From IMG/VR virus record IMGVR_UViG_2603880147_000001: a stretch of 5,099 nt of DNA; one strand, 5' to 3'. Positions 1,037-5,099 of the stretch are shown here, one piece after another; within the stretch, counting starts at the first letter, position 1, and every line of letters starts with the position of its first letter. The position numbers were made by a program, and so were the translations under genes. The notes beneath the pieces are model-generated. The model ran no database searches, had not been told where the DNA came from, and worked only from the letters and a program-made list of their open reading frames with translations. The stretch is from a virus. Its lineage: Duplodnaviria > Heunggongvirae > Uroviricota > Caudoviricetes.

Positions 1037-2062
1037 TTACGCCAGTTGAACGGACACGAACTCATCAGGATCAGCCAGCAGCATCAGCGGTGCTGACTGA
1101 ATCATGGTGAACTCTCGCGCCGGATCGCCGGATGTCTTCCAGTTTTTCGGATAACGGGGAGACGCATTAATACCCTCACTCAATGCATCCGCATCCTGAA
1201 TACAGCCATAGGTGCGCAGACCGCGTGCATGAGTGTTACCCAGCACCATCGTGTTGTCCGGCAGGAAGTTCTTTTTGACGCCGTTTTCCACGTACTGTCC
1301 GGAATACACGACGATGGCCACATCGCCATACATCCCCTTATAGGACACCGCTTTACCCAGGTCTTTCACCGCTGTCTCCAGCTCGGAATGAGAGCCGCGA
1401 CGGGTATCCAGCTTCTCCCTGACGGCTTTGAAGGAACGGAACAGCGCCCAGCCTTTCGGATCGAACACGATGATATTCACCACACCGCTGGCGTTCAGCG
1501 CGTAGGCTTCGATATCGTCGGTCGGGTCATACGTGGACTTGTCACGCTTGCTCCACTCCGTGCCGCCGGACTGCGTGATGTTATTCTCCTCACTGCGGCC
1601 CATATCCACCTCAACCGGATCGAAGGCTTCACCGGTCATGGTGTATTTGCCCTTAAGCACGGCAGAAACTGCCTGCATCTCTTCGACCTGGGCAATGGCC
1701 AGCTCCTCGTCACGCATGTTCTGCATAATGATGCGACGGCGGCGGTAAGCCGGGTCCGTCAGATTCTGCGGATCTTCATCCGGCAGGCGACGCAGGGTCA
1801 TCTGCGGATTCACCTCATGCTTGGGTTTGACATATCCCGGCGTAAATTCAGAGGTGGAACCGCCACGGGAGCGGATAACCTCACCGGAAACAATCGGCGA
1901 AACGTACAGCGCCATGTTTACCAGCCCCGGAATTTGTGAGAGATAGACTTTCTCCGTAGTGAAGGGATAGCTCTCACGGAAAAAGAGACGCAGAAACAGC
2001 GGATCAAACTTAAATTTCTGCTCATTTGCCGCCAGCAGCTGGGCGGTTGTGTACATCGACAT
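1037..2062 (-). CDS. E: Major capsid protein E (gpE), 341 aa
   Basis: ORF 1037..2089 contains MSMYTTAQLLAANEQKFKFDPLFLRLFFRESYPFTTEKVYLSQIPGLVNMALYVSPIVSGEVIRSRGG...ADPDEFVSVQLA, matching lambda gpE end to end. True start is ATG at 2060..2062; the track's upstream start at 2089 is a GTG inside the D-E hairpin. Length 1026 nt including TAA at 1037..1039. Confidence 0.96.
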   Translation of the reverse strand: MSMYTTAQLLAANEQKFKFDPLFLRLFFRESYPFTTEKVYLSQIPGLVNMALYVSPIVSGEVIRSRGGSTSEFTPGYVKPKHEVNPQMTLRRLPDEDPQNLTDPAYRRRRIIMQNMRDEELAIAQVEEMQAVSAVLKGKYTMTGEAFDPVEVDMGRSEENNITQSGGTEWSKRDKSTYDPTDDIEAYALNASGVVNIIVFDPKGWALFRSFKAVREKLDTRRGSHSELETAVKDLGKAVSYKGMYGDVAIVVYSGQYVENGVKKNFLPDNTMVLGNTHARGLRTYGCIQDADALSEGINASPRYPKNWKTSGDPAREFTMIQSAPLMLLADPDEFVSVQLA

Positions 2063-2075
2063 AAAAAAATCCCGT

Positions 2076-2097
2076 AAAAAAAGCCGCACAGGCGGCC
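2076..2097 (-). terminator. Terminator-like hairpin in the D-E spacer (GCCGC-CUGU-GCGGC stem-loop followed by U7); function uncertain
   Basis: Minus-strand RNA after the D stop reads ...CUAAAGGCCGCCUGUGCGGCUUUUUUUACGGGAUUUUUUUAUG(E). A 5-bp GC stem (6 with a flanking G-U pair; plus 2083..2096) is followed directly by seven U (plus 2076..2082). This is intrinsic-terminator architecture sitting between two highly expressed genes. Confidence 0.45.
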
Positions 2098-2117
2098 TTT
2101 AGTGATGAAGGGTAAAG

Positions 2118-2450
2118 TTAAACGATGCTGATTGCCGTTCCGGCAAACGCGGTCCGTTTTTTCGTCTCGTCGCTGGCAGCCTCCGGCCAGAGCACATCCT
2201 CATAACGGAACGTGCCGGACTTGTAGAACGTCAGTGTGGTGCTGGTCTGGTCAGCAGCAACTGCAAGAATGCCAACGGCAGCACCGTCGGTGGTGCCATC
2301 CCACGCAACCAGCTTACGGGTGGAGGTGTCCAGCATCAGCGGGGTCATTGCAGGCGCTTTCGCACTCAATCCGCCGGGCGCGGTTGCGGTATGAGCCGGG
2401 TCACTGTTGCCCAGCGGCTGGTAATGGGTAAAGGTTTCTTTGCTCGTCAT
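2118..2450 (-). CDS. D: Capsid decoration protein D (gpD), 110 aa
   Basis: ORF-track protein [45 protein letters not shown]...[14 protein letters not shown] matches lambda gpD. Start assigned to the second ATG (2448..2450), giving MTSKE... and 110 aa, with AAGGGA 5 nt upstream. The first ATG at 2456 would leave almost no spacer after that SD. TAA stop at 2118..2120. Confidence 0.94.
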
Positions 2451-3779: not shown

Positions 3780-5099
3780 TCTTCTCCTCCTCTGTTGATT
3801 GTCGCAGCCCGGATTCAAATGCCGCTGCCGCCCAGGCGGGCGGTTTAAGACCGGCTTCGCGGCGCTCCATCGTTTCACGGACCTGCTGGGCAAAAATTTC
3901 CTGATAGTCGTCGCCGCGTTTTGCGCACTCTTTCTCGTAGGTGCTCAGTCCGGCTTCTATCAGCATCACCGCTTCCTGTACTTCTTTCAGACCATCGATA
4001 GCCATACGACCGGAGCCTATCCAGTCACAGTTCCCCCAGGCGCTGCGGGCTTCCTGAAAGCTGAAGCGCGCTTTTGAAGGTAACGTCACCACGCGGCGAA
4101 CGATGGCCTCTTCCAGCCAGCACAGAAACATCTGGCTCGCCTGACGGGATGCGACGAATTTTCGCCGCCCCATAAAGTGCGCCCACGACTCGTTCGCGCT
4201 GGCCCGTGCCGTGGAGTAGCTCATCTGGGCGTAATTCCGGGAAAGCTGCTCATACGAGACACCCAGCCCGGCAGCGATATACCGCAACAGTGACTGCTCA
4301 AACACGGAGTAGCCGTTATCCGTGTCCTGAGCCGTCTGCAGGTTCAGTGAGTCCCCCGGCATCAGGTGCGGCACTTTTGCGCCTCCCAGACGGACCGGTG
4401 CTGCGGCGTAATACGCGGCAATTTCACCAATCCAGCCCGTCAGCCTTTCCCGCTGCTCCTGACTGTTCGCGCCCAGAATAAAATCCATCGCTGACTGCGT
4501 ATCCAGCTCACTTTCAATGGTGGCGGCATACATCGCCTTCACAATGGCGCTCTGCAGCTGCGTGTTCTGCAGCGTGTCGAGCATCTTCATCTGCTCCATT
4601 ACGCTGTAAAACACATTTGCACCGCGGGTCTGCCCGTCCTCCACGGGTTCAAAAACGTGAATGAACGAGGCGCGCCCGCCGGGTAATTCACGGGGTATCC
4701 ATGTCCATTTCTGCGGCATCCAGCCAGGATAGCCGTCCTCGCTGACGTAATATCCCAGCGCCGCACCGCTGTCATTAATCTGCACACCGGCACGGCAGTT
4801 CCGGCTGTCGCCGGTATTGTTCGGGTTGCTGATACGCTTCGGACTGACCATCCGGAACTGTGTCCGGAACAGTCGCGACGGGCTGGTATCCCAGGTGGCC
4901 TGAACGAACAGTTCACCGTTAAAGGCATGCATGGCCACACCTTCCCGAATCATCATGGTGAACGTGCGTTTTCGCTCAACGTCAATGCAGCAACAGTCGT
5001 CCTCGGCAAACTCTTTCCATGCCGCTTCAACCTCGCGGGAAAAGGCACGGGCTTCTTCCTCCCCGATGCCCAGATAGCGCCAGCTTGGGCGATGACTGA
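3760..5099 (-). CDS. B: Portal protein B (gpB), C-terminal ~446 codons; N-terminus lies beyond the window end
   Basis: ORF 3760..4956 (MMIREGVAMHAFNGELFVQATWDT...EEEKSDSRAA) matches lambda gpB. The same frame stays open upstream to the window edge: minus-strand translation of 5097..4957 gives SHRPSWRYLGIGEEEARAFSREVEAAWKEFAEDDCCCIDVERKRTFT, which precedes MMIREG in lambda gpB. The ATG at 4956 is therefore internal. TAA stop at 3760..3762. Confidence 0.94.
   Translation of the reverse strand, partial: SHRPSWRYLGIGEEEARAFSREVEAAWKEFAEDDCCCIDVERKRTFTMMIREGVAMHAFNGELFVQATWDTSPSRLFRTQFRMVSPKRISNPNNTGDSRNCRAGVQINDSGAALGYYVSEDGYPGWMPQKWTWIPRELPGGRASFIHVFEPVEDGQTRGANVFYSVMEQMKMLDTLQNTQLQSAIVKAMYAATIESELDTQSAMDFILGANSQEQRERLTGWIGEIAAYYAAAPVRLGGAKVPHLMPGDSLNLQTAQDTDNGYSVFEQSLLRYIAAGLGVSYEQLSRNYAQMSYSTARASANESWAHFMGRRKFVASRQASQMFLCWLEEAIVRRVVTLPSKARFSFQEARSAWGNCDWIGSGRMAIDGLKEVQEAVMLIEAGLSTYEKECAKRGDDYQEIFAQQVRETMERREAGLKPPAWAAAAFESGLRQSTEEEKSDSRAA

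Follow-up and report, generated by a model that had tools for sequence, protein, structure and literature searches.

In a lambda-like phage, the spacer separating gene D, for the decoration protein, from gene E, for the major capsid protein, carries a compact hairpin that runs directly into a tract of seven U residues. We propose, with a probability of about 0.55, that this D-E element is a Rho-independent terminator embedded in the Q-antiterminated late operon, where it lies just 5' of the ribosome-binding site (RBS) of E and would make expression of E conditional on Q. The analysed DNA, hereafter the window, is the whole stretch of 5,099 nucleotides, which over its full length is 97.2% identical to positions 3098-8196 of lambda (J02459). 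All real genes of the window lie on the minus strand and are collinear with the lambda late operon, in the order B (portal), C/Nu3 (protease/scaffold), D, E, FI, FII and Z as given by the lambda annotation. Gene D (2118..2450, minus strand) encodes the head decoration protein of 110 residues, an assignment based on its open reading frame and translation, on 97% DNA identity to lambda and on the annotation of D at the matching place. Its stop codon (2120-2118) forms the 5' boundary of the spacer. Gene E (1037..2062, minus strand), recognized by its open reading frame, the lambda annotation and tblastn, encodes the major capsid protein of 341 residues and starts with the AUG at 2062-2060, and the AUG of FI is located at 995-993. 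A mechanical list of open reading frames had E begin at a GUG at 2089, inside the D-E hairpin, and placed the start of FI within the E-FI hairpin (AUG at 1034); both starts were dismissed as artefacts in view of the lambda annotation.

Composition and predicted fold of the D-E spacer

The spacer comprises 55 nt (2063-2117), every base of which is the same as in lambda J02459 (6080-6134). Read on the minus strand from 2097 to 2060, it gives GGCCGCCUGUGCGGC-UUUUUUU-ACGGGA-UUUUUUU-AUG, which is exactly the layout of hairpin, U7, ACGGGA, U7 and start codon described in an earlier, sequence-only reading of this DNA. The complete order from the D stop to the E start, again on the minus strand, is UAA-CUUUACCCUUCAUCACU-AAAGGCCGC-CUGU-GCGGC-UUUUUUU-ACGGGA-UUUUUUU-AUG. 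Following the stop codon, a linker of variable sequence, CUUUACCCUUCAUCACU (2101..2117), leads up to the terminator and collects most of the substitutions seen among lambda-type loci; it is succeeded by the A tract AAA (2098..2100). The putative terminator hairpin, delimited by folding and comparison, starts with a G and occupies 2083..2097, with a 5' arm GCCGC (2096-2092), a loop CUGU (2091-2088) and a 3' arm GCGGC (2087-2083). The first U7 (2076..2082), the candidate terminator U tract, touches the stem. Between it and the start codon lie ACGGGA (2070..2075), the weak Shine-Dalgarno (SD) element of E with GGGA at 2073-2070, and the second U7 (2063..2069), which is predicted to be mostly unpaired.

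The sequence-only reading had called the hairpin terminator-like, and folding bears this out. In a 36-nt context, the minimum free energy (MFE) structure of the element is a 9-pair hairpin, AAAGGCCGC/GCGGCUUUU, with an energy of -12.2 kcal/mol that was equalled by 5 of 200 shuffles. Five G-C, one G-U and three A-U pairs make up this stem, the A tract contributing through AAAG, the partner of the four U residues at the 5' end of the U tract. Without the A-U extension, a G+C core of five G-C pairs is left, with an energy of -7.7 kcal/mol. The element combines the features by which intrinsic terminators are recognized, namely a G+C stem closed by a short loop (here a tetraloop), a U tract abutting the stem, preceded in this case by the A tract, an orientation matching the direction of transcription, and a pairing that is kept while the loop is free to vary. 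Read on the opposite strand, the hairpin is followed only by the tail CUUUAGUG.

When the larger segment 2040-2130 (minus strand) was folded, the MFE structure contained two outer helices enclosing the terminator hairpin, one formed by the last codons of D (CAUCG) with codons 2-3 of E (CGAUG), and the other by CCC (2113-2111) with the GGG of the SD element. The long-range helix between the end of D and the beginning of E was rejected as a functional feature, as it is not conserved in N15. We likewise discarded a second, tandem terminator composed of the CCC/GGG helix and the second U7, given that its closing helix has 3 bp only and that in relatives the CCC is either deleted or lacks conservation.

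The frequency of such elements was determined with our own scans, which replaced a built-in promoter and terminator scan. The built-in program missed the D-E site because its extension of the stem consumes four U residues and leaves a U-poor tail, an artefact of the scanner. Our strict motif was defined as a perfect stem of 5 bp or more that includes no fewer than four G-C pairs, a loop of 3-8 nt and at least six U in the next seven positions. It is found at two sites on the coding strand of the window, in the D-E spacer and inside gene C, and nowhere on the non-coding strand of the window. Dinucleotide shuffling yielded an expectation of 0.005 strict motifs per window, with any occurrence at all in 5 of 1000 shuffles. 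Moreover, the coding strand of the window has only two T runs of six or more, both of them in the D-E spacer. A d'Aubenton-Carafa-type score, used as a relative yardstick only, amounted to 31 for the D-E site and 32 for lambda tR2. A first scan of the whole lambda genome was too permissive (72 hits) and served solely to locate intergenic candidates, and covariance models of Rfam 15 returned no match overlapping 2063-2117 at E <= 1. Hairpins on their own are a different matter: at -7 kcal/mol or better they occur in 41% of coding-sequence tiles, a frequency that makes hairpin-only cases weak evidence, and they were not used as evidence here. The combination of the D-E hairpin with its U7, in contrast, is more than chance.

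Comparison of decoration-to-capsid spacers

For a comparative analysis, we gathered about 270 loci around homologues of the capsid gene from viral contigs, genomes and phage records; a capsid alignment of ten lineages had proved too diverse as a seed for the locus search. From these loci, 69 distinct decoration-to-capsid spacers and 78 distinct spacers between the capsid gene and the next gene were extracted. The collection also brought up short contigs of low coverage, 94-100% identical to the lambda capsid gene, in dozens of assemblies from unrelated organisms (loci L094-L112, L128, L132-L133 and L143-L166), including those of Chromatium, Kitasatospora, Neobacillus, Bradyrhizobium, Akkermansia and others. 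These contigs almost certainly represent lambda DNA contaminating the sequencing libraries.

The GCCGC/GCGGC stem of the window defines a family of 28 distinct spacers from 118 loci, which comprises lambda, N15-type phages, an Erwinia genome and an Aeromonadaceae metagenome bin. Throughout this family the five inner pairs never vary and a tail of T6-T8 is present in all 28 spacers, whereas 13 different loop sequences occur. The linker between the D stop and the hairpin is deleted in one relative (L069) and measures from 0 to about 45 nt in others. Other lineages carry unrelated stems at the same place, namely GGCCAC/GUGGCC, CCGCC/GGCGG, GGCUGCC/GGCGGCC, GAGCC/GGCUC (Vibrio phage K242) and GGGCGCC/GGCGCCC (alphaproteobacterial genomes). 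In nearly all of these families the U tract follows directly on the stem, and A residues precede many of the stems. Overall, a hairpin followed by at least five U in eight positions is present in 51 of the 69 distinct decoration-to-capsid spacers, and the stricter class with six U in eight in 49 of them, as compared to 2 of 239 coding-strand tiles that reached the latter class in the control.

Aligning the mixed stem families with MAFFT and RNAalifold put the stems out of register, and the resulting consensus of -1.9 kcal/mol was meaningless. This approach was replaced by per-sequence folding, an arm-swap control and an anchored count of pairs. Among 11 variants of the inner stem, each arm formed on average 6.1 contiguous pairs with its own partner, but only 1.4 when arms were swapped. 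In a structure-anchored alignment, 98.4% of the cells were paired versus 66% in shuffles (a level reached in 0 of 500) and all seven positions changed on both sides; since the predicted hairpin of each sequence itself serves as the anchor, these figures show that a hairpin is present in every lineage, and not strict column-wise covariation.

The terminator form is not universal. Modules of the phage 21 type have a stronger hairpin at the same place, followed by CUGAUUUC and lacking an abutting U tract, and a Providencia prophage has no hairpin between its decoration and capsid genes. The head module can evidently dispense with the terminator form. The element is also absent from five distant phages with short or unstructured spacers (Chi-like ST-101, phiAxp-2, Suzuki, RcMaeve and Cr-LKS3), three of which are classed as Casjensviridae in their records. 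Such absences would be expected if the element were without function, be it a neutral relic or something left behind when modules recombined at their junction, and the variable, sometimes deleted upstream linker is likewise what one expects near a mosaic junction. We nonetheless consider this explanation very improbable, as the 118 loci of the GCCGC/GCGGC family combine free loops with a fixed stem and tail, distant lineages have arrived at the same architecture with unrelated stems, and chance would supply the strict motif at the low rate per window given above. Instead, the comparison of sequences indicates that the D-E terminator architecture is maintained by selection in many lambda-type head modules.

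The Vibrio phage K242 (OZ195722) has its own canonical terminator, AAAAGAGCC-UUUAU-GGCUC-U6, at 5394-5455, between a putative decoration gene, annotated as 'hypothetical protein', and the capsid gene. The capsid proteins of K242 and the window share only 33% identity. K242, the one distant lineage examined among those that evolved a canonical terminator of their own at this position, is an N15-like plasmid prophage, and its genes include ParAB, a CII-like gene and a repressor as well as a gene annotated as a Q-like antiterminator.

Translation start of E and companion hairpins

Concerning the start of E, the sequence-only reading had pointed to a weak SD element, and the calculated strength agrees: the duplex with the 3' end of 16S rRNA has an energy of -4.1 kcal/mol, which ranks E 21st among 23 lambda late genes. 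Within the same set of 23 genes, E has the highest A/U content in the 25 nt upstream of the start codon (64%) and the lowest energy for opening the region from -18 to +12 (5.3 kcal/mol). The SD element is kept as ACGGGA, AUGGGA or ACAGGA in lambda- and N15-type relatives. Given the weak SD in the most A/U-rich and most easily opened leader, it is plausible that initiation relies on the open leader of E, where a predicted single-stranded, A/U-rich tract lies beside the SD element. The further suggestion of an A/U-rich, enhancer-type start holds to this extent, but not for the second U7 as such, the position of which is taken by AAAAAUCU in N15-type relatives; what is conserved there is the richness in A and U, not the U run. 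Across the lambda late genes, we observed that SD/anti-SD pairing is weak for each of the three most abundant virion proteins, D, E and V (-4.1 to -5.9 kcal/mol), and strongest for the low-copy proteins C, Z, M, FII and H (-10 to -12 kcal/mol), which is opposite to what one would naively expect.

These properties of the leader could be taken to explain the entire element. U-rich single strands around the weak SD would then act as a translational enhancer or ribosome standby site that recruits the 30S subunit via S1, and the likeness to a terminator would be a by-product. The rank of E in SD pairing, A/U content and ease of opening is in line with this explanation, as is the position of the hairpin and U tract, which stay within 2-9 nt of the E SD while their distance from the D stop ranges from 0 to about 45 nt. 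Furthermore, U-rich regions that bind 30S subunits and enhance translation are described for the E. coli rnd gene (PMC5934652, citing Zhang and Deutscher 1992). Nevertheless, we give the enhancer explanation little weight. About four of the seven residues of the first U tract are predicted to pair with the A tract, an A-rich spacer stands in for the second U7 in N15-type relatives, and the stem is conserved and compensated although an enhancer has no need of it. In addition, the distance from the U tract to the SD varies between 2 and 9 nt, whereas its contact with the stem is constant, which argues against a tract kept only as a translational enhancer. Opening of the RBS was calculated to cost 6.95 kcal/mol in the wild type, 3.96 kcal/mol with the hairpin disrupted and 5.03 kcal/mol with the hairpin deleted, and hence neither change reduces accessibility in silico. 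For the same reason, we rejected the idea that the hairpin insulates the RBS of E from upstream pairing.

The D-E element is accompanied by two further hairpins in the window. The first, AUGGCCC-UUCG-GGGCCAU (1034-1017, minus strand; -12.9 kcal/mol), was picked up by the built-in scan between E and FI, and its U-rich tail UUUUCUCUCU (1016-1007) lies before the SD and AUG of FI. Its counterpart after gene 8 of N15 is annotated as a putative terminator. A GC hairpin after the capsid gene is present in 75 of the 78 distinct spacers, six distant phages included, and 25 of these 75 lack a U-rich tail. The second, CCCGC-CUACGC-GCGGG (3710-3695, minus strand; -12.5 kcal/mol) with the tail UUUUCUUU (3694-3687), is the strict-motif site inside gene C. 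The segment 3687-3710 corresponds to lambda 4486-4509 and lies about 49 nt past the stop codon of the portal gene. It belongs to an island of about 35 nt with near-complete nucleotide identity, four-fold degenerate codon positions included, that is kept across lineages in which the flanks are only 50-70% conserved and the capsid proteins 56-63% identical. In one locus (L142), the stem has undergone a compensatory change from CCCGC/GCGGG to CCUGC/GCAGG, which is synonymous for Pro and replaces Arg by Gln, and retains a U8 tail and an energy of -11.5 kcal/mol. Together with the nucleotide island, this change points to selection on the structure itself. This suggests that the D-E terminator is one of a few signals of this kind within the head operon. 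Farther downstream in the lambda late operon, compact hairpin-plus-U signals are located at 15464-15489 (I-J), 18920-18943 (J-lom) and 19612-19641 (lom-orf401), and the V-G spacer of lambda (9696-9710) gave no hairpin-plus-U match in the scan.

The sequence-only reading had preferred a role in RNA stability or processing over termination. In its pure form, such a role would involve no useful termination; the D-E hairpin would be a barrier to 3' exonucleases or a processing boundary that stabilizes the D segment and, jointly with the hairpin after E, would bracket a stable E message. Several observations are compatible with this idea. In the 75 spacers mentioned above, the GC hairpin after the capsid gene has an energy of about -12 to -22 kcal/mol, a third of these hairpins lacking a U-rich tail, and the phage 21-type modules keep a strong decoration-capsid hairpin in the absence of an abutting U tract. 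The three hairpins of the window (inside C, D-E and E-FI) are of near-equal stability (-12.2 to -12.9 kcal/mol), and protective 3' hairpins are documented as shaping operon stoichiometry in E. coli (PMC5927463). We still regard a pure stability or processing element as unlikely. Whatever the stem of a lineage, the U tract in contact with it is invariant, an A tract comes ahead of many of the stems, and protection from exonucleases needs neither, whereas hairpins of -7 kcal/mol or better are so common in coding tiles that the hairpin-only cases carry little weight. Because the U tract strictly touches the stem, whereas the protective hairpins mapped in E. coli by Dar and Sorek are typically not followed by such a tract (PMC5927463), termination competence looks like the selected property of the D-E element. 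The preference for stability over termination is thus not supported, the conserved contact between U tract and stem pointing the other way, and the hairpin may in addition stabilize the read-through RNA. We hold to be rather doubtful a combined model in which the three co-conserved hairpins in C, between D and E and after E would stop polymerase lacking Q and, once read through, would mark the ends of stable mRNA segments after B, D and E, with the D-E hairpin doubling as a U-rich landing pad for ribosomes.

Proposed conditional termination and known systems

Late transcription of lambda starts at pR', from where it is carried out by polymerase modified by Q. Q-modified polymerase ignores terminators across the lambda late operon (PMC7547250), and where an operon couples internal terminators to processive antitermination, only polymerase carrying the proper modification supports expression (PMC8955417). 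In the light of this behaviour of the Q-modified enzyme, the conserved terminator features of the D-E element make a conditional terminator the most economical reading. Q-modified RNA polymerase coming from pR' would read through the element, such that D and E are co-transcribed in lytic growth. Polymerase without the Q modification, engaged in leaky, spurious or read-in transcription, would stop at 2076-2082, and expression of E and the genes beyond would in this way be conditional on Q. Two secondary effects may be added. In the read-through mRNA the hairpin should still form and could present a barrier to 3'-to-5' exonucleases for the upstream segment ending in Nu3-D, and those U residues of the tract that stay unpaired could, jointly with the A/U-rich spacer between SD and AUG, provide an exceptionally open initiation region that offsets the weak SD of E.

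The element is present in lambda, in N15-type phages and in K242, which has an unrelated stem and the annotated Q-like antiterminator. This link to Q antitermination is correlative and involves few independent lineages, and is suggestive at this level. Some features speak against a conditional terminator. The G+C core is short, and efficiency on unmodified polymerase could be modest. Nor is it obvious what use a terminator would be directly ahead of the gene whose product is in greatest demand. As the lysis genes lie upstream of the D-E element in the operon, it could not protect the lysogen from the most harmful leak.

To our knowledge, it has never been fully explained how the lambda late proteins are made from one long transcript in amounts that differ by orders of magnitude. 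A conserved conditional terminator ahead of the late gene with the highest expression would, along with its companion hairpins, offer an easily mutated handle on late-protein stoichiometry. Lambda D and E are, moreover, used in display and packaging vectors, and a cloned D-E fragment placed under an ordinary promoter would carry a terminator between both genes.

As an annotation, the D-E terminator is already known in relatives, where independent annotators have marked it. The N15 record (GenBank AF064539) lists a 'putative rho-indep. transcription terminator' twice, once in the gap from gene 7 (decoration) to gene 8 (major head) and once right after gene 8, and the mEp237 record (NC_019704, RefSeq) lists a 'rho-independent terminator' between the decoration and capsid genes. 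Nothing is annotated in the D-E spacer of the lambda GenBank record J02459. A full-text search of the accessible literature retrieved no paper on the D-E terminator and no experimental 3'-end, termination or decay data for the site. With the element annotated in close relatives and belonging to a familiar class, its novelty is low. The stem-loops of N15 and mEp237 share with the window the homologous position, the GCCGC/GCGGC stem, the U7 and an ACGGGA or AUGGGA element, the capsid protein being 88% identical. They differ in the loop (CUGC or UUGC as compared to CUGU in the window), in a longer linker between the D stop and the hairpin, and in the spacer between SD and AUG, which is AAAAUCU instead of U7. 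Their terminator features are sequence-based annotation, not experiment.

With regard to translation, the leader of E resembles that of E. coli rnd. In the rnd leader studied by Zhang and Deutscher in 1992, a G+C hairpin reportedly likewise precedes a U run. The U-rich stretch of rnd is located just upstream of a poor initiation signal (PMC5934652), as it is in E. Unlike rnd and the S1-dependent A/U-rich enhancers, however, the first U tract of the E leader is predicted to be partly paired, and the second is not conserved as U.

Similarly, the D-E hairpin can be likened to 3'-protective hairpins such as that of malE-malF and those described by Dar and Sorek (2018), in that it is stable, conserved and situated at the 3' boundary of a high-demand gene in a polycistronic RNA. 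Of the latter hairpins, several may occur per operon, and many lie inside the downstream open reading frame (PMC5927463). The D-E element departs from this pattern by its strict U7 and its intergenic position, and the gene-C element fits the description better.

A further comparison is with the known terminators of lambda. tR2 and tR' have mapped RNA ends and known regulatory roles, and are overridden by phage antiterminators. The D-E element shares with them the combination of hairpin and U tract and the location on the transcribed strand of a lambda operon under antitermination; unlike them, it is located about 10 kb into the late operon (lambda coordinates) and has a shorter G+C core. A comparable arrangement is found in the conAn system of pLS20, where only polymerase that was modified at the beginning of the long operon gets past the internal terminators. 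The proposed role of these terminators is to suppress spurious transcription and to permit differential expression (PMC8955417). Whereas pLS20 has more than 20 internal terminators, our scan of the lambda late operon revealed a handful of compact intergenic ones, located at D-E, E-FI, I-J, J-lom and lom-orf401.
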